This document shows, one piece after another, positions 1 to 31,666 of a stretch of 32,222 nucleotides of DNA. Both the position numbers and the translations under genes were made by a program. Positions within the stretch are counted from its first letter, which is position 1. Every line of letters starts with the position of its first letter. The notes beneath the pieces are model-generated. The model ran no database searches, was not told the origin of the DNA, and saw nothing but the letters and a program-made list of their open reading frames with translations. Source of the stretch: a virus (Duplodnaviria; Caudoviricetes); the IMG/VR virus record IMGVR_UViG_3300049857_000042, positions 1 through 32,222 of that record; one strand, given 5' to 3'.

Positions 1-301
1 AACAAAGTTTACCTACCACAGGGAAGACGACAAGCAGATAGAGCTTGACTACTATGGAGTTCCCGTGTACGCAAAGCCTCTCGTTGGTCAGGTTAACTTC
101 ATGAAGTCTCTTCGAGCTAGAGGATACTACATAGTTGTGTGGTCAGCCAACGGTAAAGAGTGGGCGTCTGAGGTTGTTAGTAAACTTCATCTTAAATCAA
201 TTGTAAAGGGTGAAGGAACCAAGCCTGCGTTCTGCGTTGACGACAAGGATCCTAACGACTGGATGAAGAGGGTCGTGATAGACCTGGAGGCTACAGAGTG
301 A
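1..301 (+). CDS. HAD-superfamily hydrolase-like protein, 5'-truncated by window edge
   Basis: Frame is open from nt 2 (upstream of the ORF-track start at 65). HAD-like motifs IVVWSANG..WA, KP and VDD. Stop overlaps the next GTG (GTGA). Confidence 0.55.
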   Translation, partial: TKFTYHREDDKQIELDYYGVPVYAKPLVGQVNFMKSLRARGYYIVVWSANGKEWASEVVSKLHLKSIVKGEGTKPAFCVDDKDPNDWMKRVVIDLEATE

Positions 302-1251
302 GCTGCGAAGGTTGCGTCTCACACAGCGCGTGGCAGAAGTACATGACATGTCCTAAGATGTACGACTACCACTACAACCAAAGGCTTAGGCCTGTCGGTA
401 CCACCTCAGCTCTAGCGTTTGGCGTTGCCGTTGACGCAGGGCTTAACGTTTTGCTTCTTGGTCATAAAGATGGCAAGGCTGACGTTCAGGCATCGGTTGA
501 AGCGTTCAGAGCCGCGTTCAAGTACGAGGAGCTTAGGTGTCCTACGTTTGACCGCAAGGACTTCGACCCTAGACTTGTTCCTGAACATGAGCGTGGATCA
601 AACCTAGACTACAACGCATGGAAGTCTCTACGAGTTAAAGGAAGACTCTTGATAGAGGAGTACGCTCGTGTTATACTTCCTGAGATAGAGGAAGTACATG
701 CAGTCCAAAAGAACCTTGATACTAGACCTGGCATCATCGACGCAGTCGTTGTCGTTCGCGGACACGGTAGAGTTGTTCTCGATAACAAGACGAGCGCTAA
801 CCCGTACGACGCTGACGCTGTTGCAAACGATACACAGCTCGCTCTGTACGCCGACTCTGAACGAACGGAGAAGGCAGCTTTCGCCGTCATGGTCAAGGAC
901 ATTAGCTATCGCGTGGTACGTGTGTGCTCTAAATGTGGCTATGATGGCTCACAGTCTAGGCATAAGACATGCCCAGCTGAAGTTAAAGGATCTCGTTGCG
1001 GCTCAGAGTGGAACGAGAAGACAGAACCAAGACCTGTCGTTCAGCTCCTGGTTGACAAGGTGCCGACGGTTACAAGAGATCTCGTCAAGGATTCGATATC
1101 TCAGGCTGAAGCCGGTATCAAAGCTGGAGTATATCCGCGTAACCTAAGAGGCTGCGGCAGGATATACGGTAAGAGATGTCCTTACTTCGAGAAGTGTTGG
1201 AAGGGATCTGATAAAGGACTTGAAACAATAAAGGAGAAACAAGATGGCTAA
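298..1251 (+). CDS. PD-(D/E)XK exonuclease (Cas4/AddB-like) with Cys cluster
   Basis: N-terminal SHS..Y..CP, GIIDAV...VLDNKT, QLALYA, C-terminal C..RCPYFEKC. Sits just upstream of an annealing protein, as in Red-like modules. Confidence 0.85.
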   Translation: MSCEGCVSHSAWQKYMTCPKMYDYHYNQRLRPVGTTSALAFGVAVDAGLNVLLLGHKDGKADVQASVEAFRAAFKYEELRCPTFDRKDFDPRLVPEHERGSNLDYNAWKSLRVKGRLLIEEYARVILPEIEEVHAVQKNLDTRPGIIDAVVVVRGHGRVVLDNKTSANPYDADAVANDTQLALYADSERTEKAAFAVMVKDISYRVVRVCSKCGYDGSQSRHKTCPAEVKGSRCGSEWNEKTEPRPVVQLLVDKVPTVTRDLVKDSISQAEAGIKAGVYPRNLRGCGRIYGKRCPYFEKCWKGSDKGLETIKEKQDG

Positions 1252-1324
1252 GAAACCAAAACCACGTAAACCTAAACCGAAACCAAAGCCTCGTAAACCG
1301 ACGCCTGCATGGGGAGGATACTAA
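1244..1324 (+). CDS. 26-aa Lys/Pro-rich micropeptide MAKKPKPRKPKPKPKPRKPTPAWGGY
   Basis: AAGGAG at 1231-1236, ATG at 1244 overlapping the end of the nuclease gene, TAA at 1322-1324 overlapping the next ATG (TAATG). Too short for the ORF track. Confidence 0.75.
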   Translation: MAKKPKPRKPKPKPKPRKPTPAWGGY

Positions 1325-1731
1325 TGAGCACAGTGTTAACAGAGAAGGGTACAAAGTTACCTCTCATAAACCTTAAGGGTAAGTCATACCTCATGGTAGC
1401 GCATCGTCTTCAGTGGCTAACCGAGAAGGAAGAGAACTACGTGATCGACACCAGCATAGTTAGCGAGAACGCTGACCAAGCTATACTTCGCGCTAAGATC
1501 ACGATCCTCACTCCTGACGGTAAGGTTAAGAAGCAAGCTTCTGCCACCAAGGTAGAGACTAAGAAAGACTTCAACGACTATCTAGAGAAGGCTGAGACTG
1601 CAGCTATAGGTCGAGCTCTAGCTATGCTAGGCTTCGGAACGCAGCACGCGCTTTCTGACCTAGACGAGGGTGAGCGTATAGTTGACACTCCGCTTAAGTC
1701 TACGAAGGCTGACTCTAAGGGAGACTTCTAG
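1324..1731 (+). CDS. single-strand annealing protein, Rad52/Sak-like fold
   Basis: KGKSYLMVAHRL and EKAETAAIGRALAMLGFG motifs, acidic DF C-terminus. Start moved to the TAATG at 1324, which has a GGAGG RBS. Confidence 0.7.
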   Translation: MSTVLTEKGTKLPLINLKGKSYLMVAHRLQWLTEKEENYVIDTSIVSENADQAILRAKITILTPDGKVKKQASATKVETKKDFNDYLEKAETAAIGRALAMLGFGTQHALSDLDEGERIVDTPLKSTKADSKGDF

Positions 1732-1955
1732 TGACGTGGCTAAGCTACATCGCAACAGGTCTCGTTCTAAGCGGCGTCTACTTCATCGCTCAGCCAAGAT
1801 TGAGAGGTCAGTGGATCATGCTTGGTGCAGACCTTACATGGCTTACATACTCTATCATAACTGGGCAGTATGCTTTGACGCTTCAAAGCTTGGTGCTTAT
1901 AAGCTTGGCTGTTAAAGCCATTAAGAATTGGAACAGAGAAGGAATAAAATTTTAA
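1731..1955 (+). CDS. small 3-TM membrane protein, PnuC-like half transporter
   Basis: Three hydrophobic segments with W..Y....QY and C-terminal NW pattern. TAGTG coupling to the upstream gene. Confidence 0.5.
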   Translation: MTWLSYIATGLVLSGVYFIAQPRLRGQWIMLGADLTWLTYSIITGQYALTLQSLVLISLAVKAIKNWNREGIKF

Positions 1956-1956
1956 G

Positions 1957-2430
1957 AAGTGATGCTGGTCGGCATTGATAAAGCCGGTGCCCGGTCACTT
2001 TGTAGTAGAGGCGTGATAAGCTGTGGTAGCGATATGGAGCCTTTGGGTTGAAGTATCTGAAATAGGTTCGCCACTTGATACACGCACAACAATAGCTTCT
2101 TGGTCTGGAAGGGTACAGTCTAGCTAGCTTGTATGACGGAAGACGTAGAGATGGGTGGCAACCCTACTCTATAAACCAGAAGTCAGAGTCGCGTCTGACC
2201 TACTAATGTGGACATATACATAATATGTCATCTCTAGCCGGGAGATTTTAATATAGGCTGAGTGTGGGTATAATGCTTAACCCTCTAAGTACAGGAAGCT
2301 GCTTGTTTGCAGCGAAGAAAGATCTGAACACCAGAGCCTGTCGCGTCACCTGCTAGATTAAGTGGTGAGGTTGGTATGGCTTCGTAAAGCGGTGGTCCCG
2401 CGTGAAACCAAAACGGGACGCTTTTAACCT
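1957..2430 (+). ncRNA. candidate large structured RNA upstream of primase-helicase
   Basis: ORF-free 480 nt in a gene-dense genome, with about a dozen hairpins, multibranch closure TAGTAG(2003-2008)/CTACTA(2200-2205), two possible pseudoknots, and G-U wobbles that favour the + strand. Confidence 0.6.
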
Positions 2431-2439
2431 GGAGGACTG

Positions 2440-3924
2440 ATGTACATATCTTTAAGCAACGAGAGCAACACCAAGTTCGTTTCTACGGACGTTGCCACCT
2501 TAGGTGAGGTTGCAGGTAAGATACTAAAGAGCTGGTACTCGCTATCTATATACAAGGACAGTTACCGTCTCAACAGCAACTTCGTTTACTCAAAGTTCGT
2601 AGGTTTAGACTTCGACGGTGGCATGACTATAGAGCAGGCTAAGGAAGCTTTCAAGGACTACAACTGCATAATAGCTACCACCAGGAACCATCAGAAGGAT
2701 AAGAACGGAGTTACCTGTGACAGGTTCCGTGTCATCCTTGAGCTTGAGGAGCCTGCAGAGAAGCCTGAGGACTACAAGGCTACGGTCATGGAGCTTCTAA
2801 AACTCTACCCTGCTGCAGACAAGGCTTGCTCTGACCCTGCAAGAATGTTCTTCCCGTCAACTGAAATAGTGTACATACATCAAAAAGGTAAGAAGATAGC
2901 ACTACTTAGGTACGTTAAGCCTGAGGTAAAGGTTGAGAAGGTTAACAGCCTCCAGAAAGGTGCGCTGTCTAAGCTTACCAACGACTTCATAGTAAGAGGC
3001 GCGTCGAGCGGAGAGTGGAACACAAGGCTCTTTAAGGCTGCTGTTGACTGCAACGAGCAGGGGTACACCGAGCAGGAAGCCATCAGCCTTCTTCGTAAGG
3101 CTACAGCCGACTTCGACGGAGACCTTGACGACAGCGACCTAAAGACCATAGGATCTGCCTACGGCAGGGATCCTAAGCATCCACCTAGAACCCAAGGTTC
3201 CTGCTTCAACTTCAAGAAGCCATCTGAGATATCTCAAGGCTCAGAGACGGTTGAATGGCTCGTTGAGGATCTATTAATCAAGGACGGCGTTTCGATATTC
3301 GCAGGGATGCCTAAGTCAGGCAAGTCTACCATAGTTAGACAGCTCGCGTCGTCGGTGGTAAAGGGATCAGACTTCCTTGACCGAAAGGTTAAGAAGGGTA
3401 AGGTTCTCTACCTAGCTCTTGAAGAGTCAGGATCTCTAATCAACAACCAGTTCAAGAAGATAGGCATAACCGACGATGACGACATCATGGTACACGTAGG
3501 ACCCATGAACGAGGGTAACCCTTTAGACAACCTTAAGGAAGCCATCAGAGCGTACGGAGCAACTCTTGTTGTTGTGGATACTCTGATACTCATGGTTCAC
3601 TTCGAGAACATGAACGACTACAACGAGGTTTACAGGAAGCTTTCTCAGGTTAGAAACGTTGCCAGAGATACAAACTGCCACATCATATGCCTTCATCACC
3701 AGAACAAAGGCGAGGACAGAGGAGCAAGCTCCATCATGGGATCAGGAGCCGTGTCAGGAGCCGTTGATAACTCTATGGTGTTCAACACGGTTAGAGGAAG
3801 AGAGCTTTACAGGAAGGTTAGGTCATACCAAAGAGGAGGCAGGGACTTCTTGAACGTTGAGCTTAAGTACATTCCAGAGATGGACACGTACGAGCTCAGC
3901 AAGAACCAAGACCCTGATTTTTAA
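2440..3924 (+). CDS. primase-polymerase / RepA-type (AAA_25-like) helicase fusion
   Basis: GLDFDGG, TTRNH, RFRVIL, D..CSDPARMFF (prim-pol), GEWNTRLF (PriCT-like), Walker A GMPKSGKS, Walker B VVVDTL, HHQNK. GGAGG RBS at 2431. Confidence 0.88.
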   Translation: MYISLSNESNTKFVSTDVATLGEVAGKILKSWYSLSIYKDSYRLNSNFVYSKFVGLDFDGGMTIEQAKEAFKDYNCIIATTRNHQKDKNGVTCDRFRVILELEEPAEKPEDYKATVMELLKLYPAADKACSDPARMFFPSTEIVYIHQKGKKIALLRYVKPEVKVEKVNSLQKGALSKLTNDFIVRGASSGEWNTRLFKAAVDCNEQGYTEQEAISLLRKATADFDGDLDDSDLKTIGSAYGRDPKHPPRTQGSCFNFKKPSEISQGSETVEWLVEDLLIKDGVSIFAGMPKSGKSTIVRQLASSVVKGSDFLDRKVKKGKVLYLALEESGSLINNQFKKIGITDDDDIMVHVGPMNEGNPLDNLKEAIRAYGATLVVVDTLILMVHFENMNDYNEVYRKLSQVRNVARDTNCHIICLHHQNKGEDRGASSIMGSGAVSGAVDNSMVFNTVRGRELYRKVRSYQRGGRDFLNVELKYIPEMDTYELSKNQDPDF

Positions 3925-3925: not shown

Positions 3926-4363
3926 ATGAAACTCATTGTCGGTGATAAATATACACTTAATGAATGGGTTGCCGATCATCGCTCTTTCATTCGTAAACAG
4001 AGAAACCATAATATACTTGAGATGATGGATGGTGATGTTCAACTTCTGTTTAATCCAGAGTGGAATATAGATATGATCCGTGGATATAATTTCACATCAA
4101 TATATCTACTAAACGATGTTGACGCTGTATGTGTCAGAGATGTTTTATATCATCCTGGCATTCATGTAACTCGACGATATAGTCCAAGCTTTCAGCGATC
4201 TCAACTTCTAGCAGGTAAGTCAAACGATGTTATTGGAGTTGATTATAATTCTCAAGTTGAGACCATGCAAAAAAATAGTAGACTTTACGAGCCACCTAAG
4301 GCAGAGTATGAGGAACCGAAGGAGGACTTATATGACTGGGACACTGGTAAGATCAGGGAGTAG
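3926..4363 (+). CDS. hypothetical protein with atypical base composition
   Basis: ATG 1 nt after the primase stop. 145 aa. The 5' 350 nt is rich in AAT/ATT, unlike its neighbours. Confidence 0.6.
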   Translation: MKLIVGDKYTLNEWVADHRSFIRKQRNHNILEMMDGDVQLLFNPEWNIDMIRGYNFTSIYLLNDVDAVCVRDVLYHPGIHVTRRYSPSFQRSQLLAGKSNDVIGVDYNSQVETMQKNSRLYEPPKAEYEEPKEDLYDWDTGKIRE

Positions 4364-4715
4364 ATCCCTATGCAGAAACACCGTTATATTCGTAGGCGAC
4401 GAGTTGTCTCCTGCAAGCTTTCAGAGATCTATGGCGTTCGTTGGAACCAAGTCTTACAAGAAGATCCTTGAGTGGGTATACAAGCTTGATCTCATGCCTA
4501 TACAGGTTCTTATGTACAACAGGCATCAAGTAACAAGCAACTTCGCTCAGCACGCCAAGATCATAGCGCTTGGTACAAAAGCATCAAAGCACTTAGAAAG
4601 CTATCACTACGCGCACTTCAAGTTCCCTCACCCGTCTGGAAGAAACAGAAAGCTAAACGACAAGACCTACGAGAAGCGAATGCTTCAGGAGTGTTACAAG
4701 TGGATCAGAGCATAA
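4332..4715 (+). CDS. minimal uracil-DNA glycosylase superfamily protein
   Basis: GGAGG at 4321 then ATG at 4332. Motifs IFVGDE, AFVG..S, IIALG..A and FPHPSGRNR resemble family 4/5 UDG motifs. Confidence 0.7.
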   Translation: MTGTLVRSGSRSLCRNTVIFVGDELSPASFQRSMAFVGTKSYKKILEWVYKLDLMPIQVLMYNRHQVTSNFAQHAKIIALGTKASKHLESYHYAHFKFPHPSGRNRKLNDKTYEKRMLQECYKWIRA

Positions 4716-6952
4716 GAGACTTCGTTTACGGCAAGAACCAGACAGAGCGAGTGGTAAGCGTCGAGATCGACGACTCCGTAGCCACCTTGTACCTTGATAA
4801 AGGCATAACTCAGGCCAGGAACGAGTTCTTCTGCATACACTCGGATCAAACAGAAGATGACATGATAACCTTGAACGGAGACCTTCACTACAAGTTCGTC
4901 AAGAAGTTTGACAACTCAAAGGACTTCAGGAAGCACGTTGCCATGTCGAAGGCTCGAGAAGAGGACGTGTACGCCATATACAACCCTAAGGAAGCCTTCA
5001 TGGTTAAGACTGGAGTTACCTACTACAAGGGTATGAAGCCGTCTGACCTAAGGGTGTTGTCGTTCGACATAGAGACTACAGGTCTTGATCCTAAGAGCTG
5101 TCAGGTTCTGATGATATCGACTGCTCTCAGAGACGAGAGCGGATCGCTGTCTAAGATCCTGTTCAGCATCGATGACTACAACTCTGAGAAGGAGATGATA
5201 TATGCGTTCTGTAACTACGTTGTTGCTAACAACCCTCACGTTATGGTCGGACACAACATACTCGCGTTCGACTTACCGTTCCTCAAGCAAAGAGCAGGTT
5301 CTCTACCTCTTGGAGTCGATAAACAGGCAGCTCAGTTCGCTACACGACCCAGCCTGTGCAGGAAGGATGCCAGCCAAAAATACGACTACTTCAACGTGCT
5401 CGTGCGAGGGCGCGAGATCGTTGACACCTTCCACCTTGCCATCAAGTACGACGTTGCCGGTAACTACAGAACCTATAAGCTTAAAGACATTGTAAGGCAG
5501 GAAGGTCTAGAGAGAGACGACAGGTCGTTCGTTGACGCCTCCAAGATGAAGAAGTACTTCGACGAGAGAACAAGCAACCCAGACCAGTGGCAGAAGGTAA
5601 AGGACTACGCTATACACGACGTCGAGGACGCTCTTAAGCTCTTTGAGCTCATGATACCTGCCTACTTCTACTTCTGTCAGTCGGTTCCTAAGACGCTTCA
5701 GCAGATCGTAAGCTCTGGAAGATCAACAGGCAACCAGATCAACTCGTTCCTTGTTCGCTCTTACCTATCCGACAAGCACAGCCTACCTAAAGCTTCTGAG
5801 GTTGAGCACTACGAGGGAGCAACAAGCTTCGGTAACCCTGGAGTGTACGAGTACGTAGGCAAGGTCGACGTGGCAAGTCTCTACCCATCAATAATAAGGG
5901 AGTACAAGATATATGACAAGAACAAAGATCCTAAAGGATATTTCTTACGAATGGTCGAGTTTTTTACGCTTGAACGCCTCAACAATAAAAGACTTGGTAA
6001 AGAAACAGGTGAGAGATACTACAAGGATCTCGAGCAAGCCCAGAAGATTGTTATTAACAGCGCTTATGGTTTTATGGGTGCTCCTGGTCTCAACTTCAAC
6101 TCTCCTCGATGTGCTGCTGATGTTACCCATAGGGGCCGTGACATTCTTCATAAGGGTCTTGAGTGGGCCGAGTCAAAGGGATGGAGGATCGTCAACGCAG
6201 ACACAGACTCCTTCTCGTTCATAACAGGTAACCGCTTCCCTCCTGGAGCGTTCAAGGAGTGGATCAAGGAGCTTAACACTCTCTATCCTGAGAAGATCAG
6301 ATGGGAAGACGACGGGATGTACCGATCCGTGATCGTCATCAAGACCAAGAACTACATAATGAAGGAAGCATTGACTGGTAAGGTTAAGATAATAGGAGGC
6401 GCTTTAAAGGCTACAAGCAAGGAGCGTGCGCTTCAGAAGATGATAGACGAGGTCATAGCGATGATGCTAGACGGTCGAAAGGAAGATGTTTTAGCGTTCT
6501 ACGAGAGCATGGTTAGAGAATGTTTCAAGATAACAAAGGAAAACATACAGGACTGGGTAAGCAAGAAGACTATAACCAAGAAGCTTGTTATCAGCAAACG
6601 AGCGAACGAGACTCGGGTGGTAGACGCCTACAAGAGGGCTAAGCTATCGGTTCAAGAGGGTGACAAGATATTTGTTTATTTTAGTACTGACAAAATGTTA
6701 TCAGTTATAGAGAGCTTCGACGGCGTGTACGACGTCAGGAAGCTTATAGGTAAGGTTTACAACACTATCAAGGTGTTCAAGACAGTGCTTGACATGGCTC
6801 AGTTCAAGAAGTATCATAACAAGAGAGAGTTTGAGAAGCTCTCGAAGGAGTTACAATGCGCTTCCAGTTCTTCAGATACAAGAAACAGATCGACGAGCTC
6901 GGCTACCTCTTTGCAATCCGCTTCAAGCGCTTCGGTAAGTCCGACAGCGTAA
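4700..6952 (+). CDS. polB: family B DNA polymerase with 3'-5' exonuclease
   Basis: ExoI SFDIET, ExoII GHNILAFDLPFL, ExoIII YAIHDV, region A DVASLYPSII, region B KIVINSAYG, region C ADTDS, KTKNY. Start at GTG 4700 (AGGAG at 4687) preferred over 4691. Confidence 0.95.
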   Translation: MDQSIRDFVYGKNQTERVVSVEIDDSVATLYLDKGITQARNEFFCIHSDQTEDDMITLNGDLHYKFVKKFDNSKDFRKHVAMSKAREEDVYAIYNPKEAFMVKTGVTYYKGMKPSDLRVLSFDIETTGLDPKSCQVLMISTALRDESGSLSKILFSIDDYNSEKEMIYAFCNYVVANNPHVMVGHNILAFDLPFLKQRAGSLPLGVDKQAAQFATRPSLCRKDASQKYDYFNVLVRGREIVDTFHLAIKYDVAGNYRTYKLKDIVRQEGLERDDRSFVDASKMKKYFDERTSNPDQWQKVKDYAIHDVEDALKLFELMIPAYFYFCQSVPKTLQQIVSSGRSTGNQINSFLVRSYLSDKHSLPKASEVEHYEGATSFGNPGVYEYVGKVDVASLYPSIIREYKIYDKNKDPKGYFLRMVEFFTLERLNNKRLGKETGERYYKDLEQAQKIVINSAYGFMGAPGLNFNSPRCAADVTHRGRDILHKGLEWAESKGWRIVNADTDSFSFITGNRFPPGAFKEWIKELNTLYPEKIRWEDDGMYRSVIVIKTKNYIMKEALTGKVKIIGGALKATSKERALQKMIDEVIAMMLDGRKEDVLAFYESMVRECFKITKENIQDWVSKKTITKKLVISKRANETRVVDAYKRAKLSVQEGDKIFVYFSTDKMLSVIESFDGVYDVRKLIGKVYNTIKVFKTVLDMAQFKKYHNKREFEKLSKELQCASSSSDTRNRSTSSATSLQSASSASVSPTA

Positions 6953-7074
6953 GAAAGACGTACGGCTCAGGAGTAGACCTAGGGATCGTTCTCTTTGACG
7001 TTCACTACTGCCTAGAGATAAGGCTAACCGCGCCCGAGAGGGAGACTCTTACGAAGCGCGGAAGCCAAACTTAA
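6856..7074 (+). CDS. hypothetical basic protein
   Basis: AAGGAG RBS 5 nt before the ATG. Overlaps the polymerase 3' end, and its stop shares TTAA with the convergent tail gene. Confidence 0.55.
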   Translation: MRFQFFRYKKQIDELGYLFAIRFKRFGKSDSVRKTYGSGVDLGIVLFDVHYCLEIRLTAPERETLTKRGSQT

Positions 7075-8216
7075 TATTCAAAACGTAAGTACCCGTCACC
7101 GCCGAAGCCGCCTGGACCGCCTTGAGCGCCTCCACCGGCTTCTCGGCCTCCTCCTCCACCGCCACCACCTGCTCCGTAGTAGTCAGCGTCGACTCCAGTT
7201 CCACCAGTACCAGAAGCTCCGTTACTTTGACCGTTGCCGCCGTTGCCGCCCTTCTTGAACGAAGGACCTCCTCCACCGCCACCAGCGCCACCGCCGCCGC
7301 CACCACTGCCTCCTCCGTTAGTTCCCGGAGTGCTGAAGGTGTCTACCCAGTGAGTGTAGGTGTTGGTTGAAAGCCCTGATGTTACGTTGTTGTTGGTAGT
7401 AGCTCCGCCTCCGCCGTTGGCTCCTGCTCCTGGTGCTATATCAAACACGTTAGGCGTCAGAACGAAAGCGTTGCCGCCTAGAGCTCCTCCGCCTGCAGCG
7501 CCACCGTTGGATCCGTTGGCACCTCTCACAGCGCCTGGTATAATGATCTTATATCCTTGGTCGAAGCCTGTTATAACGGTCGATGTTCCGTCAACACCAG
7601 AGGATGCCGTCATGGCACCGCCTAAGCCTAGAGATATTGATAGAACGTCTCCAGGTATCACAGGAACGCACGAGAACATGAACGGTGTAGCTCCTGCTCC
7701 GCCGCCACCTCCGTCACCAGACCTTGTTGTACCGTCGTTACCTGTACCACCTCTACCACCTGATCCTCCGCCTCCGCATCCTATGAGAGACCTGATCTGG
7801 TATATACCTTGAGGAACTGTGAAGGTGAATGTTGGAGCCGTGCTTGTCCACACCTGAGCATCGGTTGATATGTTAGATATGACAGAAGTCTGGAACCATC
7901 TGGTGTTGATGTTCGTTCCTGCCGTTACCCAGATGTGAGCAAGGTACATCTCTGCTGCGGTATCGTAGGATGCATGCCTTACAGGAGATCCTGATACCTG
8001 AACAACGTAAACGCCGTTCTCTGAGGCTACCGTCTGGTTCTTGATAAGTATGATATCACCGTTAGCTAGGGTTACTCCTCCGAAGGAGTCTCCTGACTCA
8101 GCCTGGATGGCAAGGGATATGTTAGCGGTTGACGCCGCTCTAACCCTGAATATAGTTTGATACTTGAACTCAGTGTATCTCTGCTTCCTAGGGAAGTGTA
8201 CTAAAGCTGCTCCCAT
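7071..8216 (-). CDS. glycine-rich tail fibre/tip protein
   Basis: N-terminal GVTLANGDIILIKNQTVASENGVYV tail-fibre motif, then FTVP...GGGGSGG...GGDGYLRFEY glycine-rich domain. Last gene of the virion operon. Confidence 0.75.
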   Translation of the reverse strand: MGAALVHFPRKQRYTEFKYQTIFRVRAASTANISLAIQAESGDSFGGVTLANGDIILIKNQTVASENGVYVVQVSGSPVRHASYDTAAEMYLAHIWVTAGTNINTRWFQTSVISNISTDAQVWTSTAPTFTFTVPQGIYQIRSLIGCGGGGSGGRGGTGNDGTTRSGDGGGGGAGATPFMFSCVPVIPGDVLSISLGLGGAMTASSGVDGTSTVITGFDQGYKIIIPGAVRGANGSNGGAAGGGALGGNAFVLTPNVFDIAPGAGANGGGGATTNNNVTSGLSTNTYTHWVDTFSTPGTNGGGSGGGGGGAGGGGGGPSFKKGGNGGNGQSNGASGTGGTGVDADYYGAGGGGGGGGREAGGGAQGGPGGFGGDGYLRFEY

Positions 8217-8217
8217 C

Positions 8218-8733: not shown

Positions 8734-8743
8734 CTTGTGTCTC

Positions 8744-12447: not shown

Positions 12448-12456
12448 CTATTTCTC

Positions 12457-18490: not shown

Positions 18491-18507
18491 AAGTGTCTCC
18501 CTTACTT

Positions 18508-18538: not shown

Positions 18539-18551
18539 CGTAGTTTGAATT

Positions 18552-19745: not shown

Positions 19746-19758
19746 GAAATAAATCTCC

Positions 19759-20211: not shown

Positions 20212-20212
20212 T

Positions 20213-23898: not shown

Positions 23899-24082
23899 TC
23901 TCGCTTATCTTTCTGATTAGGTCTGAGTTCTCTGTGTCAACATAGTAAGTGGTGTAGTATGCCTTGCCGTCGTAGAGGAACGGCGTGTAGTTGTAGCTGT
24001 AACCACCCTTGAGGTTAATCATGTTGCACTTGGCAACAAGAGCCTCCATAGACTGAGCTTTAACTAGCACCTGAAGTAGCAT
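23873..24082 (-). CDS. hypothetical protein
   Basis: AAGGAA RBS, 69 aa, overlaps the fibre gene start. Confidence 0.55.
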   Translation of the reverse strand: MLLQVLVKAQSMEALVAKCNMINLKGGYSYNYTPFLYDGKAYYTTYYVDTENSDLIRKISENERRTTKK

Positions 24083-24096
24083 TCAGTTCCTTTAAG

Positions 24097-24144
24097 TAAC
24101 CCAAAACAGGGTTATGTTTCTTTAAATAACCCGTTATAGGGTTA
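24097..24144. promoter_or_regulatory. two TAACCC-N6-GGGTTA palindromes, operator-like
   Basis: 24097-24114 and 24127-24144. Identical arms, different spacers, 30-bp period. Confidence 0.6.
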
Positions 24145-24150
24145 GGATAG

Positions 24151-24182
24151 ATGACACCCAGGGCTTACGCCCCAGGCATCAT
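24151..24182 (-). terminator. 14-bp GUAA-tetraloop hairpin after the capsid gene
   Basis: AUGAUGCCUGGGGC-GUAA-GCCCUGGGUGUCAU with four G-U pairs valid only on the - strand. No U tail, so it may be an mRNA stabiliser or leaky terminator. Confidence 0.65.
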
Positions 24183-24189
24183 GTTTAGA

Positions 24190-25074
24190 CTAGAGGGCTG
24201 CTGTTTCGTCGCCGAACCAGATCAACTCACCGTCGCGGATAACGCGAACGCCGTACTGAGCATCCATAGAAACGAACGTGCGTTTCTTAGAGCTGTGACG
24301 TTCCTCGTCAACCGTAACGTTCTTCATCATAGCCTTCACGATAGCGTCTGTGTGAAAGATCACTACCTGGTTAGCTGTCAAGTCTTGAGACTCAACGATG
24401 ATGAAGCCGTACAAGCGAGCAAGCTCACCGTTAACAACGGCTTGGTTGTTGCCGAACTTAGAAGCATCCTGGATGCCGTCTTCTGTTCGGAGCAAGTGTG
24501 CCTGCTTAGGCGACACCATGCAGATACGACCAGACTTAGGGATCTTGGCCTCATCCATCTCTTTACCGATCAAAGAGAGCTGGTTAAGAGTCAAGCGCTG
24601 GTTAGCGTTAGACTGGTCATCAGTGCCAGCAAGCTGGAACTTGTTGGTGTTAGCTCCACCAGACTCAGGCTTAACGGTACCTGCAGCTACCATAGCCGCG
24701 ATGAGGTCTCCTTCAAGCTGCTCTGCCATAGCAGGAGCTGCCTCTACGTAGAAGTCATCGACTAGGTCTACAGAAGAGTAGGCTTGGTCGGTGTCGTAGA
24801 TGTAGTCCCATACAGTCTTGAACTTATCGATCTGCAAGGTGTCTTTAAGGTAAGACGTTGCAGAGTCAGCGAGTTCAGTACCGCTGTCGTCGTAGTTACC
24901 TACAGAGCGACCTACTGAGCGAGGAATAGTTGTGTAGCGTTGACCAGGACGTAGTCTGTCCGAAAGGTCACGGGCTAAAGCCCATGCTACTGAATTTTTA
25001 CGCAAAGCGCGTTGGATCTCGTCAGCTAAAATCTCCGTACGAGTTAGCTTGGAGAGATCTGATGCAATAGACAT
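24190..25074 (-). CDS. major capsid protein (HK97 fold)
   Basis: After the scaffold gene. TIPR, GRICMVSP, NGELARLYGFIIVES and YGVRVIR motifs. Strong AAGGAG RBS. Confidence 0.88.
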   Translation of the reverse strand: MSIASDLSKLTRTEILADEIQRALRKNSVAWALARDLSDRLRPGQRYTTIPRSVGRSVGNYDDSGTELADSATSYLKDTLQIDKFKTVWDYIYDTDQAYSSVDLVDDFYVEAAPAMAEQLEGDLIAAMVAAGTVKPESGGANTNKFQLAGTDDQSNANQRLTLNQLSLIGKEMDEAKIPKSGRICMVSPKQAHLLRTEDGIQDASKFGNNQAVVNGELARLYGFIIVESQDLTANQVVIFHTDAIVKAMMKNVTVDEERHSSKKRTFVSMDAQYGVRVIRDGELIWFGDETAAL

Positions 25075-25091
25075 AATTTCTCCTTATGTGT

Positions 25092-25721
25092 TTATATTGC
25101 TAGACCGACCTTGCTGCTCTGAGTGCGCTTGCTTGCGAGCAAGGCTCTCTTCTCAGCTTGGGTCATGTTATCTAGCGTTTGTAACGGGTTTGCTGAAGGT
25201 GTATTAGATCCCGGTGCTTGATCGTTCATGTTACCTGCGTTCTGCGTAGGAACCAACTCAGGGTTCTCTTGTCGAAACTTGTTTGCAACTGCCGTAACAC
25301 TCTCAGAGCTGAGCGTTCCGTCGTCACGAACAACGATCTCGTCAAGCGCAGCGTGCTGCAGATACTTAGGCTTGATGTTGCCACCGAGCTCACGCATAAG
25401 CGCCGTCATCTTAACACTCTTCTTGTAGTGCTCGTCTGTACTCTTAAGAGCAGTTTCAGCTCTTTCACGAGCCTCTTTCTCTTTCTGGTACAGCTCTTCG
25501 AAGCGCTTCTCGTCCTGCATCTTAGCTTCCTCAGCCGCCAATATCTTGGCTTCTAACTCAGCAGCCTTAGCAGCCGCCTCCTTAGCCTGAGACTTATACT
25601 TGTGCATGTCCTTTGAAACCTCTTCGTAGGCACTACGAGCTACGAACTTCTCCTTCTCGTCGCCACCAGCGGCTTTGGATTGGTCGTTAGCCTTCGGATC
25701 CTGGTTACTACCGTTCTCCAT
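25092..25721 (-). CDS. capsid scaffolding protein
   Basis: Charged coiled-coil with a low-complexity C-terminus, directly upstream of the capsid gene. Confidence 0.75.
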   Translation of the reverse strand: MENGSNQDPKANDQSKAAGGDEKEKFVARSAYEEVSKDMHKYKSQAKEAAAKAAELEAKILAAEEAKMQDEKRFEELYQKEKEARERAETALKSTDEHYKKSVKMTALMRELGGNIKPKYLQHAALDEIVVRDDGTLSSESVTAVANKFRQENPELVPTQNAGNMNDQAPGSNTPSANPLQTLDNMTQAEKRALLASKRTQSSKVGLAI

Positions 25722-25750
25722 ACTTTCTCCTTCTGCGCTACAAGCGCTGT

Positions 25751-26233
25751 TTAGAAACCATCAAACTTTATCTTGTTCAGTATCTCCGTGATCTTAACGC
25801 TCATCGCTTTAATCATGCGGTTCATCTCTGCGTTAGACACGTTCATGAACTGAAACTGCGGGTTGATCTTAAGAACGTTCTGAGCTTTCTCTTCCTGCTC
25901 TGCGTCCTTAAGCCTAACCTCAAGCTTGCCTCTTCCTACCGCGAACCTAAGACCGCTGAGCAATGCTCCGGTCTGGTTAAGTCCTGACTTGGCAGGAGTG
26001 GCACCTGGTCCTGTTAGCTTCCCTTGCTTGTCGAGAAGCTTCCTGTTGCTCTTGGTCTTAACCGCGAGCTTTGGTAGAGGATGGGTAGGACCTTCTGGAT
26101 CCATCACTCCGCGTCCGAGCCTTGTTCTTAAAGGTATAGACTCGACTAGAACCTTACCAGCCTCTTCTAGAACCGTCTTTGATCCTAGGGCGTCTGCTAT
26201 GATCTGACCGATGTCTGACAACTTAGCGCCCAA
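25751..26233 (-). CDS. virion morphogenesis-like protein (paralogue B)
   Basis: RTRLGRGV ... LNQTGALLSGL ... FMNVS..E, resembling Mu gpG-like neck proteins. Confidence 0.5.
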   Translation of the reverse strand: MGAKLSDIGQIIADALGSKTVLEEAGKVLVESIPLRTRLGRGVMDPEGPTHPLPKLAVKTKSNRKLLDKQGKLTGPGATPAKSGLNQTGALLSGLRFAVGRGKLEVRLKDAEQEEKAQNVLKINPQFQFMNVSNAEMNRMIKAMSVKITEILNKIKFDGF

Positions 26234-26702
26234 GAAGCCCTCTCACGAAACCCTCAACGAAGCCTTCTGATATGTCGGCTGGTTGTGTGTCTCTCTCTGG
26301 CTGACCGAAGTCTGAGAGTATGGACTTAAGCTCCTTGTCTGTTAGACCTAGAAACTTGAAGCCCTTCTCTTCCAGCCACACGGACTTGTCGTTCTCGTGC
26401 TGGCCGTTTAGTCCAATAATTATTCGACCTATGATCGAGGTGTTTATAACCTCGACCGAGTCGAGCATGTCTCCAGACAGAGTTAGGTTAACGTCGTTCT
26501 TAGACTTGTTAGCTATCTCGAACTCTGGAGTCTTAACGTAGGTCTTGCTGTATGATCCCTTGAAAGGTTTCTTACCGACGCCTTGACCGTTCTTTGTTCT
26601 GTCAACGATGTACCTAACGATCTCGATGCCTATCTGCTTACGCTCTGCTTCCGTGTATCTGGGATCTACGAAGGCAGTATACGTGTTGTCTCGCTCTGCC
26701 AC
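26223..26702 (-). CDS. virion morphogenesis-like protein (paralogue A)
   Basis: RTKNGQGV..F..YS..Y ... VNLTLSGDMLDS ... FLGLT..E. Confidence 0.6.
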   Translation of the reverse strand: MAERDNTYTAFVDPRYTEAERKQIGIEIVRYIVDRTKNGQGVGKKPFKGSYSKTYVKTPEFEIANKSKNDVNLTLSGDMLDSVEVINTSIIGRIIIGLNGQHENDKSVWLEEKGFKFLGLTDKELKSILSDFGQPERDTQPADISEGFVEGFVRGLLGR

Positions 26703-26709
26703 GCGCTAC

Positions 26710-28269
26710 CTACTGTGTTTGGTTTGGTCTTGACTCTGGAGTCTGCTTAGCTCCCTGCTGGTTACCATCGTTGAACTGACCGTTACTCTTTTGTTCAGGA
26801 TCCATCGATCCCATGCCGTCAATTATGGACTGCATGTTGTCCTCAGCTTCCTTATCCAAAGCCTCAACCCACGCATCAACCTCGGAGTCTGACCAGTCTG
26901 GGTGAAGCATCTTGATAGCCTGAGATCTTGTGGCAAGCTTAAGATCGCGCATTCCTTTAACCTCTTCAAGCTTCTGAGAGAACGACTTTAAGAGCTTAAC
27001 CTCGCAGAACTCAACTCCGAAGGTTTCTTTGAAGCTCTCGCTGAATACGCGCTTCTCGATAACCTCAGGTCTTCCTGTCCACACGCGCTGCATGTCCGCC
27101 ATCAAAGACCAAAGCTCGTACTCAACGCACGAGAACACCTCAACCTGCGACTTCTTCTCCGAAGATATGTCACCCTCGTCGATAGCCTTAGCTATTCCTG
27201 AGGCGTCTCTACCGTTAGACAGAGAACCGTTGGTGTTAGCCTTGATGCCTAGGCTGTCAAGATGAGCGTTGAACTGAAACTCTATAAGAGAAAGCTGATT
27301 AGGTACGTCAACAGTAGGGTTGATAGTACCAATCTCAGGATCACCAGTACCGTCAGCTTCGCTATCTCCAAGATCAACAATCGCATCTGGGTTTAACTCC
27401 TGGTTGTTAAGCTTAACGTTCTTGGTCCACGTTATCGAGTGTGAGCAGAACTGGGCAGCGTAGTTCAAGTCTGTGAGCAGCTTAGGTATCAAGATCGAGA
27501 AGTCAAACCCTGGCTGGTTAGGATAAGGCATAAGCTCGGTAACTGTTCTTTTACAATAAACGAAAGGTATGCGACCGACGGGGTTAGACGTGTTGCTTAT
27601 TCGCATCTCCGCCATGATGTCGGCTCGTATACCGCCGTTTGAGTCAATAACTAAAAACTCTGTGTCGCTGTATAAAGCGAAGATGTCTACAAGCTCTGGA
27701 CGCTTGTCCGTGTCTTGTCTCGTTCCATCCCTTGAAGGGTTAGAGGGACCAACCATCATCTGAACGCGCGATCCTAGAAACTTTATGAACACGGTATGCT
27801 TGGACGGGTCAGTCTTGCTGTCGCTGTAAACTAGGAACTGGTGAGGGCTTAGTACCCTAACCTTGTGCATGCCTTCCTCTATGAAAGGCTCGAGAGCGAA
27901 GCTGAAGAGTCCGTTGTAGAACTTGTTGGCAACGTCTAGGATAACGTTTACCTTAGACTCCTTAGCGATCCTCTCCATGATCTCAACGTCTGTCTTGTTG
28001 TCAGCCTTTCTTCGAGGCGGCTCAACGTATATCTTAGACAGCTTGCTTGTTGTTCGCTGAAGTATGTTAAGAGACGGGATGCGCTGAACGCACCTGTTGT
28101 AGGCTGACTTGGAGATGATCTCCTTAGACAGGCTATCCTCTATCTCTTTACGGATCTGACCTTCAAGTATCTTGTACAGACGGAAGTTGAACTCAAGGTT
28201 CTGCTTCCAGTTACGTATGTGAGTAAGTATGTCCGGTACAAGGTCTTTCAAGGGTTTTGATGTTCTCAT
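26710..28269 (-). CDS. portal protein
   Basis: About 519 aa directly after TerL. NPVGRIPFV and ASGIAKAI motifs. Start reassigned to ATG 28269 with an AAGGAAG RBS. Confidence 0.85.
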   Translation of the reverse strand: MRTSKPLKDLVPDILTHIRNWKQNLEFNFRLYKILEGQIRKEIEDSLSKEIISKSAYNRCVQRIPSLNILQRTTSKLSKIYVEPPRRKADNKTDVEIMERIAKESKVNVILDVANKFYNGLFSFALEPFIEEGMHKVRVLSPHQFLVYSDSKTDPSKHTVFIKFLGSRVQMMVGPSNPSRDGTRQDTDKRPELVDIFALYSDTEFLVIDSNGGIRADIMAEMRISNTSNPVGRIPFVYCKRTVTELMPYPNQPGFDFSILIPKLLTDLNYAAQFCSHSITWTKNVKLNNQELNPDAIVDLGDSEADGTGDPEIGTINPTVDVPNQLSLIEFQFNAHLDSLGIKANTNGSLSNGRDASGIAKAIDEGDISSEKKSQVEVFSCVEYELWSLMADMQRVWTGRPEVIEKRVFSESFKETFGVEFCEVKLLKSFSQKLEEVKGMRDLKLATRSQAIKMLHPDWSDSEVDAWVEALDKEAEDNMQSIIDGMGSMDPEQKSNGQFNDGNQQGAKQTPESRPNQTQ

Positions 28270-28277
28270 CGACTTCC

Positions 28278-29474
28278 TTAAATGTAGGTTACGCCACCCT
28301 CGCGTTTTGGCTTCCTTAGAGGGTTCAGCTTCCAGCACATGTATCCGAGCGCGTCAGATATGTGGCTAAGCATCGGGTCTTTGTTGTCGTAAGTAAGCTT
28401 CTCGAGATCCTCTATCAGCTTCTTGCATCTGGGATCTATAACAACCATGCCGTGCTCGAAGAGCCTGTTCATGTTGTTGTATCTGTCCTTGATCTCTGGG
28501 TTCTTGAACTTGTAGTCTACGAGCAAGTTTGCTCTTCTGAGGATCTCGTAGTCAGTAGAGTTAGACGAGGTCTTTCTCTTCTTGCCGCTGTCGTCGCCGA
28601 TGACTGAGACCGCTGTAGAGGGATAACGTTCGCATATCTCTCTGGCTGCTTTAAAAGTGTTAGAGTCTTCCTGGTAGAGCTCGTTCGAGATGTATATCTT
28701 GTCGCTGCTCTGGTAGCCGAATACGCCACAAAGGGGATGAACGTTAAAGTCCAGACCGCAATAAATAGTTTGATGTCGCTCATTGACTTCCTTGCAGTTC
28801 TTCGTTCTGTCGAACGCGTAGTAAACCTTACCGCTTGACAGGTTAACAAACTGACCCTCAAGCTCCTGCTGAGCTAGACGGGTGTCGTAGTTTGCTCGAA
28901 GCGTGTTGACGTAAGTCTCAGTCAGGTTCGAAACGTTGTCTACGGTCTTTGAGTATATAACCCTAGACTGCGGGACAGGAGCCTCAACGAACTTGGTGTA
29001 GAGCCAGTTGAAGCCGTTAGGCGTCGTTGTACCCTTCCACTGACAAGGACCCTTCCGGTCCCTTATCCTACCTATCAAGACGTTGTACGCCTCTTCTCGG
29101 TAGAACGCGCACTCATCCGACCATACCCATCCAACCTCGATACCACGAAGTATATCGTAGTTCTCCATGGATATGGTAAAGATCTCTGTCTCTCCGATGC
29201 GCACGATCCCTTCCTTCTGAAGGAACCGGTACTCTATCTCGTTCTGTCTTAGAACCTCGAAGAACTTAGGAAGCGTTGCCTTGTTAAGCTGCGAGTAGGA
29301 GTTGGCTGTTATCAGGCCTTTTGTGTTGGGATACTGATTTGACATCAACATAGCCCAGGCAGCACCGCCGTAGGTTTTACCTGACCCTAGTCCTCCGCAG
29401 AACAGAGCGTACTTCTCTCTCGCAGTTAGAAACTCCATCTGCGTTGGAGAGAGGAACATTTCTTTGCTGTTCAT
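28278..29474 (-). CDS. terL: terminase large subunit
   Basis: Walker A GGLGSGKT, LRG, Walker B WVWSDE, TTTP.G, nuclease GLDFN and HISDALGY. Confidence 0.95.
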   Translation of the reverse strand: MNSKEMFLSPTQMEFLTAREKYALFCGGLGSGKTYGGAAWAMLMSNQYPNTKGLITANSYSQLNKATLPKFFEVLRQNEIEYRFLQKEGIVRIGETEIFTISMENYDILRGIEVGWVWSDECAFYREEAYNVLIGRIRDRKGPCQWKGTTTPNGFNWLYTKFVEAPVPQSRVIYSKTVDNVSNLTETYVNTLRANYDTRLAQQELEGQFVNLSSGKVYYAFDRTKNCKEVNERHQTIYCGLDFNVHPLCGVFGYQSSDKIYISNELYQEDSNTFKAAREICERYPSTAVSVIGDDSGKKRKTSSNSTDYEILRRANLLVDYKFKNPEIKDRYNNMNRLFEHGMVVIDPRCKKLIEDLEKLTYDNKDPMLSHISDALGYMCWKLNPLRKPKREGGVTYI

Positions 29475-29884
29475 TCGTTCTCGACCTTCTGAGACGGTAC
29501 AACCGCTAGAGGTTTGCTAAAATCTTTCTCTTTAAAAATAATTGTCTCTGGTCTCTTAGGAACGTCAACCTCAACCTCGAAGAGACCTGCAAGCTTAGCC
29601 TGCGCGTTGGTTGCCTCGAGAGCGGTCTTAAGGTTACCCTTCTCTATGGCCTTCTGGAAGATACCTTCCTGTCTTGCCATGAGGTTAGCTCGGAGCTCGC
29701 CTCGCTGCTCCTGCATCAGACCCTGCATATCCTTTAGAAGCTGATCGTACTGCTTGATGACCGTAGGCTTCGTGATCTTCTCTTCATCGGCAACTATGCG
29801 TACGATGTTGTTGCGGTTCACACCCTGAGCCATAAGCTCCTGGATGCGCTGCTCGCGTCTAATCATCTGTGCCTTGGTTGCCAT
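29471..29884 (-). CDS. terS: terminase small subunit
   Basis: N-terminal HTH-like segment, helical body, AKLAGL motif. ATGA-coupled to TerL. Confidence 0.75.
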   Translation of the reverse strand: MATKAQMIRREQRIQELMAQGVNRNNIVRIVADEEKITKPTVIKQYDQLLKDMQGLMQEQRGELRANLMARQEGIFQKAIEKGNLKTALEATNAQAKLAGLFEVEVDVPKRPETIIFKEKDFSKPLAVVPSQKVENE

Positions 29885-29946: not shown

Positions 29947-29990
29947 GCAGATGACGGCGGGATGCATAAGAAATTCTTATGGGAGGTCTG

Positions 29991-30422
29991 ATGAGAACCA
30001 TAAAAAAAATAATAGTTCACTGCAGCGACTCTGAGGACAGCCTAGACATAGGCTTCAGGGAGATCGATGAGTGGCACAGAGCTAGAGGATGGCTAAGCCC
30101 ATCAGGCATAAGCTGTGGTTATCACTTCATTATACGAAGGTTCGGCAAGATCGAGCAAGGACGACCGGTGTCAGAAACGGGCGCTCACGTCGAAGGTCAC
30201 AACTCAGACTCCATCGGCATCTGCGTGGTAGGCCGAAAGAAGTTCGACCCAGTACAGATAGACGTCTTGTATCGCAAGGTTAAGGACCTTATGGTCCAGT
30301 ACAACGTACCGGTAGACAAGGTCTTCGGTCACTGCGAGATGGACACAGGCAAGGCACAGGGTAAGACCTGCCCCAACATGGACATGAACCGGGTAAGAGC
30401 CGAGCTGCTCTTCGTAAAGTAG
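29991..30422 (+). CDS. endolysin, N-acetylmuramoyl-L-alanine amidase (T7 lysozyme-like)
   Basis: IIVHCS, GYHFII, GAHV.GHN..SIGIC..G, GH.E and KTCP zinc-amidase motifs. GGAGG RBS before ATG 29991. Confidence 0.93.
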   Translation: MRTIKKIIVHCSDSEDSLDIGFREIDEWHRARGWLSPSGISCGYHFIIRRFGKIEQGRPVSETGAHVEGHNSDSIGICVVGRKKFDPVQIDVLYRKVKDLMVQYNVPVDKVFGHCEMDTGKAQGKTCPNMDMNRVRAELLFVK

Positions 30423-30432
30423 GAAGTTAGGA

Positions 30433-30663
30433 ATGGACCTATCAAAGTTTCTTATACGTCACACCGGTGGAGAGAAGTCGCTAACCGCGACAGCGTTCCT
30501 CGTTGGCTTCCTGGTTGTTAACTTCAAGTTCATAACCGGAGGACTCTGGGGTACATCAGCGATATCAGGAGTTGACTACGGAGCGGCGCTCGCAGCCCTA
30601 GGCGGAGTTTACGCGCTAAGACGAAACGGAGCAAAGAATGAGACCACAGTCAGCAAAGGCTAA
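30433..30663 (+). CDS. putative holin
   Basis: Two hydrophobic segments and a basic C-terminus, directly after the endolysin. Confidence 0.6.
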   Translation: MDLSKFLIRHTGGEKSLTATAFLVGFLVVNFKFITGGLWGTSAISGVDYGAALAALGGVYALRRNGAKNETTVSKG

Positions 30664-31018
30664 GGGAAGAAGACTTCAGCAGGACGTGTGCAAGCTTCTA
30701 GTCGAGGCGCAGCCGTCTCTCGAGAAGGACGACGTAAGGTCAACTTCTATGGGAGCTCCTGGAGAAGACATCCTATTCAGCCCAGCAGCAAGACGGGTTT
30801 ATCCCTTCAGCGTCGAGTGCAAGAACGTTGAGAAGCTAAACATCTGGGAAGCCATAAAGCAGGCAGAGTCCCAGAACAGAGCGTACCCTCCGATGGTATG
30901 CTTCACAAAAAACGGAGAAGACATTTATGTTGCTGTTAAGATCAAAGATTTTCTGGATAGCTACAAGCGCGATCCTTCTGCTAGCACTCCTGTGGCAGGC
31001 AGCACACCCAAAGATTGA
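30638..31018 (+). CDS. PD-(D/E)XK Holliday-junction resolvase-like nuclease
   Basis: SAKAKGRRLQ, MGAPGEDI, SVECKN and W.A..QA motifs. Confidence 0.8.
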   Translation: MRPQSAKAKGRRLQQDVCKLLVEAQPSLEKDDVRSTSMGAPGEDILFSPAARRVYPFSVECKNVEKLNIWEAIKQAESQNRAYPPMVCFTKNGEDIYVAVKIKDFLDSYKRDPSASTPVAGSTPKD

Positions 31019-31331
31019 GTTTAAAGAGAAAACGGTCACCAAGATCCAAGAAAGGGTAAAGACTCTCACAAAAATTGTCGAGTCCCCAGACGGTACGAAA
31101 GTGACTATAATTGACACCGACGCAAGTCGGAACACCGAGACCACCTCAGAACGTAAGCAGAAGTCCGGTGGATCGTGGCAGATCGTTGCGACGATGACCC
31201 AGGATAAGATCTCTGACCCTACCCCTAGGTACGGTATAGGGTTCACAAGAGAACTGTTCCTAGGCTTGTCTGGAGGGGTTTACGGCACTTCTGACAAGGA
31301 GTACGGCCTGATCGTAACCTACTCGTTCTAG
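30927..31331 (+). CDS. putative spanin-like membrane protein
   Basis: N-terminal TM helix, Thr/Lys/Glu-rich linker, C-terminal amphipathic beta strands ending YSF. Lies in the lysis cassette. Confidence 0.5.
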   Translation: MLLLRSKIFWIATSAILLLALLWQAAHPKIEFKEKTVTKIQERVKTLTKIVESPDGTKVTIIDTDASRNTETTSERKQKSGGSWQIVATMTQDKISDPTPRYGIGFTRELFLGLSGGVYGTSDKEYGLIVTYSF

Positions 31332-31381
31332 GGTAGTGGCCATTTTTTGTTACGCTTAACTTGACAATAAAGGAGAAACCT

Positions 31382-31666
31382 ATGAGAAGTCTTATACTTA
31401 CAGTCTGCGTCCTAGTGGCCACGGTAGTGGCGAACGCCCAAGGCGGATCAAACCGACCAAGCATCAACCCGATCCAGTTCTTCGAGGAGCGTGTTCTGGC
31501 AGAGCCAGGATCCCCGCAGTACGTTGCCATGACCTACATCTACGTGTCATGTGTGACAGGCCTCTTGATCGCAACCAAGGACGAGGAGAAGGTCTCAGAA
31601 GACATGCTGCACTCCTGCCTAGCGTTCTCTGAGCAGTCTGTTCAGCAACCAGAGCCTGCAGAGTAA
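31382..31666 (+). CDS. hypothetical exported protein
   Basis: AAGGAG RBS, signal peptide MRSLILTVCVLVATVVANA|Q, two further Cys. Confidence 0.6.
   Translation: MRSLILTVCVLVATVVANAQGGSNRPSINPIQFFEERVLAEPGSPQYVAMTYIYVSCVTGLLIATKDEEKVSEDMLHSCLAFSEQSVQQPEPAE

Follow-up and report, generated by a model that had tools for sequence, protein, structure and literature searches.

Gene content of the phage window

The virus record IMGVR_UViG_3300049857_000042 was analysed over a window of 32,222 bases, a single contig of 48.5% guanine plus cytosine (GC) in which the triplets AAT and ATT are about fourfold depleted on both strands. The window is part of an incomplete tailed phage of at least 38 kb that encodes a family B DNA polymerase (PolB), and it carries genes for a PD-(D/E)XK exonuclease, a primase-helicase, PolB, a virion module on the minus strand, an Amidase_2 endolysin and a resolvase (Table 1). 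No tRNA genes were found in the window, and no cultured phage close to it was found. The window is judged incomplete because a contig of run X1 (labelled freshwater sediment, possibly the source sample) reaches 5,851 bases beyond position 1 and complete relatives measure 38.6-41.9 kb. These at least 5,851 bases upstream of position 1 lie outside all window counts, and the same stretch had no match in viral contigs. Contigs of run X1 reproduce nearly the whole window at a depth of ~50, apart from positions 16014-16077, which none of the listed pieces covers, and an assembly or synthetic artefact was rejected on this ground. Run X2 gave short pieces only (share 0.07) and was not used as evidence. 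The presence of an Amidase_2 endolysin points to a bacterial host. Since GGAGG is avoided inside the window genes (33 against 72 in shuffles) and a Shine-Dalgarno-like motif lies upstream of 24 of 37 genes, that host likely uses canonical Shine-Dalgarno pairing.

Table 1. Features of the window, with AAT plus ATT counts (observed vs expected) or ratios where given
Feature	Coordinates	Strand	Remarks
Coding bulk	1..31666	.	AAT/ATT (A-W-T) ~fourfold low on both strands, all frames; AGT/ACT weaker
Small gene, weak Imp-YgjV inner-membrane match	1731..1955	+	match below cut-off; 7 vs 10; 0.71
Primase-helicase	2440..3924	+	10 vs 52
Low-GC (38%) ORFan between primase and UDG-like gene	3926..4363	+	17 vs 26; 0.66
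Small UDG-superfamily-like protein	4332..4715	+	adjoins PolB upstream; PF03167, E 0.007, below cut-off; longer open reading frame from 4227
Family B DNA polymerase with 3'-5' exonuclease domain	4691..6952	+	19 vs 82
Virion module	7071..29884	-	strongly purged
AAT/ATT-free stretch, 762 bases	9126..9887	.	within 852-aa tail-region gene; flanking sites 9123, 9888; whole gene 0.09
Tape measure	15486-17612	-	virion module; 0.13
Tail tube	18552-19745	-	virion module; 0.09
Major capsid	24190-25074	-	virion module
Likely portal	26710-28338	-	by position only
Terminase	28278-29474	-	virion module
Amidase_2 endolysin	29979..30422	+	
Right end	31001..32222	.	largely non-coding after 31666; densest AAT+ATT, 24 sites in 1.2 kb

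The 575-aa protein encoded at 22171-23898 contains numerous imperfect tandem repeats, each ~28 aa long, and gave coiled-coil-type matches below cut-offs. Relatives have, in the region that the window lacks, a dATP/dGTP diphosphohydrolase (PF18909) but no purZ, together with a ClpP-like protease (L171:6005-6382, L174:5978-6379, L174:300-806), and L174 carries a sigma-70-type factor.

Depletion of AAT and ATT and the avoided word

Together, AAT and ATT occur 263 times in the window against ~1,100 expected, a ratio of 0.24 at zero order (AAT 134 against 520, ATT 129 against 578) and of 0.37 by Markov model; with maximal-order Markov correction they are the two lowest of the 64 triplets (AAT 0.36, ATT 0.37). 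The codon AAT serves 27 of 523 Asn residues (5%, AAC taking 95%), and ATT serves 49 of 593 Ile residues (8%, with ATA at 57%). An original prediction made from the letters alone had described this avoidance of ATT by Ile, and had claimed that the loss spans codon boundaries and is not explained by codon usage. Both claims survived codon and dinucleotide controls. In codon-junction frames, compared with 100 within-gene synonymous shuffles, AAT stood at 0.40 and ATT at 0.30-0.33 (z -5 to -9 per frame), and chance, composition and codon usage were rejected as causes by the Markov and synonymous-shuffle controls. Under the same junction test, AAT/ATT ratios in other genomes were 0.86/0.69 in T7, 0.72/0.74 in CRP-171, 1.00/1.01 in PK1 and 0.71-1.07 in eight relatives. 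Local counts were likewise reproduced: positions 9001-10200, said to hold about 4 sites, contain one AAT and three ATT (at 9036, 9120, 9123 and 9888) against ~39 expected (local composition, by hand), alongside 9 AAA plus TTT, 9 CCC plus GGG, 20 TAA and 30 TTA, and the empty interval reported between 9130 and 9885 lies inside the stretch listed in Table 1.

Per-gene ratios ranged from 0.00 to 0.71 and did not exceed 0.35 in 30 of the 37 genes. Replication and virion genes were purged alike, primase and PolB conforming as had been stated. Two genes, one of which has 38% GC, have kept most of their sites, as recent arrivals would. The gene of 38% GC had no tblastn match in the fetched relatives and no usable Atlas feature match, and is probably a recent arrival. 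Atlas structures resembling it are fragments of terminase ATPases, and the likeness falls short of the bar for naming.

The avoided unit is three bases long, because all 16 NAATN 5-mers lie at or below 0.46 of expectation and ApT outside AAT and ATT is normal (GATC 1.58, GATA 1.08, TATA 1.00). A conditional-logit model of synonymous choice, which included mono- and dinucleotide terms, gave sense coefficients of -1.72 for AAT, -1.73 for ATT, -1.32 for AGT and -1.00 for ACT. The strongest junction-only feature was ANT (z -15.4; AAT z -15.0), and among gapped words ANT stood at 0.54 against 0.99 for TNT. The avoided word is A-W-T (W, A or T), with a weaker A-S-T (S, C or G) whose loss is masked in raw counts by an excess of ApG/CpT. 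The only candidate for a bipartite partner of AAT was GGNAAT (0 against 13), borderline among tens of thousands of tests. Avoidance of a promoter box was rejected (TAAT, at 0.24, is not below CAAT, 0.27, or GAAT, 0.25), as was a UV dimer at TT (with CTT and GTT both in excess), and a Z-DNA (2-aminoadenine) reading was disfavoured.

It had been suggested that the loss reflects narrow-groove A-tracts read by a minor-groove binder; a netropsin-like antibiotic or a nucleoid protein preferring narrow A/T grooves would be of this kind. The rank of the all-A/T tetramers (AATT 0.15, AAAT 0.19, ATTA 0.24, AAAA 0.38, AATA 0.38, ATAT 0.76, TAAA 0.77, ATAA 0.84, TATA 1.00, TTAA 1.12) fits this idea, being close to the affinity order of minor-groove ligands. 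The flanking context does not: AAT between C and G bases is depleted (CAATC 11 against 65, CAATG 19 against 65) while AAA in the same setting is normal (CAAAC 61 against 65, CAAAG 85 against 65), so that it is the word and not the A/T tract that is avoided. We consider a groove binder very improbable.

AAT and ATT were equally avoided on the sense and antisense strands, which upholds the claim of a strand-symmetric purge but not its use as proof of a DNA target: A-W-T is its own complement, and symmetry therefore cannot separate DNA from RNA. Selection on phage mRNA, through a host endoribonuclease cutting A-W-U, predicts equal sense coefficients too. AAU-cutting MazF enzymes and the RNase E consensus speak in its favour, as does pooled non-coding DNA, which is less depleted (AAT plus ATT 45 against 76.6 expected, 0.59). 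Non-coding DNA is still depleted, however, replication and virion genes are affected alike, and flank effects pair slightly better by reverse complement (AATA 0.35, TATT 0.35, but ATTA 0.18; by hand). This pairing (r ~0.72 over 7 pairs against 0.43 over 8 pairs, by hand) lends weak support to a DNA over an RNA target, and an mRNA target appears decidedly unlikely.

The purge of homopolymer triplets, proposed alongside that of AAT/ATT, was not supported as a special signal. Runs of three A are normal outside AAAT, AAAA and GRAAA (CAAAC 0.94, CAAAG 1.31, TAAAC 1.16, TAAAG 1.29), and T7 avoids AAA/TTT at junctions more strongly (0.47/0.44) than the window does (0.61/0.69). CCC/GGG is low (0.38; T7 0.59), mostly in C/G context, with ACCCT at 1.53. 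A slippage-prone polymerase, also offered as a cause of the AAT loss, was not supported.

Palindromes are common as described, with observed/expected counts of 198/126 for GATC, 290/126 for AGCT, 121/126 for CTAG and 133/126 for GTAC; GGCC stands at 27/111 and CCGG at 40/111. The accompanying statement that ordinary restriction avoidance is not involved could not be maintained, since several 5-6-mers are purged in the classic way. Near-absent words comprise GGAAA (1 against 28.5), GAAAA (4 against 25), ATTAC (1 against 16), GAATC (1 against 9.8) and TGATCA (0 against 15), and a third-order Markov model predicts 53.5 GRAAA (GGAAA plus GAAAA) where 5 occur, both strands being affected. The loss of GRAAA, GAWTC, ATTAC and TGATCA is ordinary restriction-type avoidance. 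Because the non-palindromic 5-mers are purged alike on sense and antisense strands, the phage lineage has been under DNA-level pressure. CGATCG and CGCCAG are likewise nearly absent from the window. That the AAT loss is the sum of many longer restriction sites is unlikely, all 16 contexts being low and common palindromes kept.

Restriction-site avoidance in non-temperate dsDNA phages, as set out in the available text of Rusinov et al. (2018, PMC6286503), resembles the AWT purge in that a self-complementary word is silently removed, and GRAAA, GAWTC, ATTAC and TGATCA in the window fit its classic pattern. AWT differs in being 3 bp long and fourfold low, with GATC, AGCT, GTAC and TCGA kept. Type II sites span 4-8 bp, and the AWT word has no clear bipartite partner. 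Near elimination is defined there as a bias under 0.1, which GRAAA and TGATCA do reach; AWT stands at 0.37, by Markov rather than by the Burge measure. The portion of that article available to us finds that Type I and IIG sites are not avoided, beside which the purging of non-palindromic GRAAA on both strands stands out, and neither '3 bp' nor 'trinucleotide' was found in it.

Lineage specificity and silent replacement

Terminase-related loci numbered 166, including a few duplicate contigs; the 160 of at least 1.5 kb were measured and 6 shorter ones dropped. In the 33 loci whose terminase is at least 49% identical, AAT/ATT ranged from 0.77 to 1.11 at 33-47% GC, and in 41 PolB loci from 0.74 to 1.21, with the purge in none. 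One locus (L167) resembles the window in codon style (r 0.81) but is not purged. The depletion is thus lineage-specific. Among 171 loci, T7 (NC_001604) came closest to the window in its 32-class triplet profile (r 0.74), sharing low AAA, CCC and CCG and high AAG; it differs in AAT (0.76 against 0.24 in the window) and at junctions, where the window stands at 0.40/0.30. Single depleted triplet classes were seen elsewhere: CTC 0.21 in L047, GAC 0.27 and GAA 0.29 in L140, CAG 0.39 in L154 and 0.16 in L162, and GAC 0.54 in L105. Distant loci of 61-68% GC (L055, L066/L151, L143) are low in A/T-only triplets; at the junctions of L055 and L066, TAA is 0.14-0.25, TTA 0.17-0.19 and AAT 0.28-0.38, a separate signature. 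Bdellovibrio phage phi1422 stood at 1.03. No report of AAT/ATT purging in a phage was found in the literature searched, a search that covered neither supplements nor most subscription papers.

The signature might mirror the host genome or a thermophile-type codon bias. The excess of ApG/CpT (1.32), the preference for ATA, AGR, AAG, GAG, AAC, TAC and TTC, and a codon correlation of up to 0.80 with Thermococci-class DNA are all in keeping with this, an excess of ApG on both strands being a thermophile trait in the accessible text of Zeldovich et al. (2007, PMC1769408). In contrast to the window, 18 stretches of 14 genomes of the class of G006, which we take to be Thermococci, show no cross-codon AAT purge (junction AAT 0.97-1.38, ATT 0.54-1.12). 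The phage proteins are not thermophile-like either, with an IVYWREL fraction of 0.384 against 0.381 in relatives (aligned columns, by hand). Such mirroring is highly improbable.

A purge confined to one lineage would also be expected if a phage-encoded nuclease degraded host DNA at AWT and the phage had cleared its own sites, and the window leaves at least 5,851 bases on its upstream side uncovered. Nevertheless, 263 sites remain, and both PD-(D/E)XK nuclease genes seen are common to relatives without the purge. The UDG-like gene has an ortholog only in L169 among the fetched relatives, and as L169 lacks the purge, the gene is not sufficient to cause it. We give this explanation very little credence. 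The phage-encoded factor for self/non-self discrimination that had been put forward could still be encoded in the unseen part of the genome.

Selection on the word was examined through the silent changes that had removed it. At the first base, the share of fourfold codons ending in A is 0.11 before AT and 0.06 before TT but 0.42 before AC and 0.29 before TC, and both C and G have taken the place of A. At the middle base, A closes 18 of 247 Lys/Glu/Gln codons before T but 46 of 326 before C, and T closes 13 of 157 Asp/His/Tyr codons before T but 70 of 360 before A (these four sums by hand). At the third, conserved Ile sites with ATT in relatives carry ATA 291 times, ATC 246 times and ATT 56 times in the window, counted once per relative and hence pseudo-replicated over 26 loci. 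All three positions are thus changed, and transversions are as common as transitions among the replacements. Selection is favoured over a single mutation bias because all three positions escape, and by both kinds of change; together with the controls and the lineage specificity, this supports the original prediction that the word itself has been selected against. The cost per site is small, since the proteins do not shun residue pairs whose codons impose A-N-T (F 1.14, Y 0.95, W 1.34, C 0.78). Strain variants comprised 25 differences, of which 2 create and 1 removes AWT, too few to separate mutation from selection. Minor strain bubbles in run X1 at 6511-6646 and 10742-10943 (depth 12-13 against 33-35; 5 and 11 differences) suggest that these patches were recombined with a co-occurring strain.

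The pattern could in principle arise without selection, if the phage replisome mutates in a context-dependent way or if the unseen 5.9 kb encodes a base modification. The GC content of the window (against mostly 33-42% in close relatives) agrees with a mutation bias, a fivefold bias could yield a log-odds of -1.7, a single rule (the A of ANT hypermutable on either strand) would cover both outer positions, and the relatives' dATP/dGTP diphosphohydrolase lies in the unseen region. Against it, the middle base is also purged and would need a second rule, replacement is by transversion as often as by transition, the 41 PolB relatives lack the signature, and non-coding DNA is less rather than more depleted, an observation that argues against pure mutation bias and also fits an RNA target or constrained promoters. 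For base modification, three phages with purZ (2-aminoadenine, or Z-genome, phages) shared no such depletion (phiVC8 1.06, SH-Ab 15497 1.08, PMBT28 0.68 at 59% GC). No purZ match occurred among the 38 open reading frames of the window, which misses 5.9 kb of the genome, and purZ and an N6/N4 methylase were each found in 0 of 5 relatives. An origin without selection is unlikely.

Host DNA-reading defence as the probable agent

On balance, we think that a host defence reading phage DNA, of whatever kind, drove the loss of AAT and ATT, through long, site-by-site selection. The escape from DNA-directed defence put forward originally is supported as regards selection on the word and its confinement to one lineage, and not as regards strand symmetry as proof of a DNA target. 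The form of defence that seems most likely to us, although we propose it tentatively, is a CRISPR-Cas system with a three-base protospacer adjacent motif (PAM), AAT or ATT, that has been eroded from the phage genome. Each escape from a spacer would fix a change in the seed or the PAM, silent ones first, and repeated escapes would fix silent PAM changes singly and leave a graded pattern. A lenient A-W-x PAM would also explain the weaker loss of AGT/ACT. The effect indeed appears graded, at a log-odds of about -1.7 per site and with 263 sites remaining, whereas GRAAA, GAWTC, ATTAC and TGATCA were lost in all-or-none fashion, and a lethal cutter is unlikely because AWT sites persist in such number while the 5-6-mers are almost gone.

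Two PAMs had been named at the outset. The Cas12a PAM TTTV was not borne out as the target, since the non-PAM tetramer TTTT (0.38) is more depleted than TTTA, TTTC and TTTG (0.77, 0.58 and 0.69). ATTN, the Cas12b PAM, fits formally, being flat on its 3' side (0.19-0.27).

PAM depletion in phage genomes has been published (Kupczok and Bollback 2014, PMC4246573). Like the cases in the available text of that study, the AWT purge concerns a three-base motif, is graded, acts on both strands relative to genes (as the near-equal sense coefficients of AAT and ATT indicate) and survives codon-resampling and substring controls (junction 0.33-0.40, Markov 0.36-0.37). GATT, a PAM listed there, stands at 0.15 in the window and covers part of the depletion only.

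Several points weigh against PAM erosion, or against a DNA target at large. AAT without AAC is not among the PAMs listed in that text; its type I-E entries are AWG (AGG tolerated) and AAY, and AAY misfits, since AAC is enriched (1.46) in the window. The depletion, at log2 -1.4 (substring), is also ~3 times stronger on the log scale than the median of the strongest CRISPR-positive group in the same text (-0.46 substring, -0.59 resampling; PMC4246573). Self-complementary AWT gives the same symmetry for an RNA target AWU, the flank pairing is not decisive, and non-coding DNA is less depleted. Distant loci L055 (0.25; Markov AAT 0.33) and L143 (0.27; 0.36) are as low as the window, alone among the terminase-related loci measured, although these 61-68% GC loci show a different pattern, TAA being lower still and ATA unused in those checked, and the DNA comparison leaves out the closest protein relatives (terminase 77-81%). 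No close named host was found, and no spacer, PAM or defence gene turned up, without a spacer-directed search.

The defence may instead be a non-CRISPR host enzyme acting on DNA with a three-base A-N-T preference and a small cost per site, a conceivable but doubtful alternative. This would be an undescribed bacterial defence that recognises A-W-T in phage DNA, its effect scaling with the number of sites, perhaps a nuclease that nicks or cuts frequently or a DarT-like modifier of single strands whose specificity has changed. The rank of ANT as the strongest junction feature and the disfavour of AST are both in keeping with such an enzyme, and an odd-length palindrome would suit a dimeric reader. 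The triplet read by DarT enzymes is N-spaced and has thymine as its first and third base (PMC12170906, available text), and reading of this kind would, as for DarT2, act on both strands during replication. The known motif TNT is nonetheless unmatched in the window, which is enriched in TCT (TCT 1.54, TGT 1.19, TAT 0.83). No enzyme with AWT specificity was found in the literature searched, and a lethal cutter would not be escaped with so many sites left.

Whichever agent is responsible, the purge gives a reason why the codon use of one phage lineage can move away from that of its relatives. Target avoidance in phages is known for restriction sites of 4-8 bp and, weakly, for PAMs. A fourfold, genome-wide loss of a 3-bp word reflects either PAM erosion far above that reported or a defence that reads DNA at a target shorter than those we found described. 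If PAM erosion is the true cause, the PAM of a host would be readable from its phage. In either case the cross-codon AAT/ATT ratio offers a simple genomic screen for hosts and for the enzyme.

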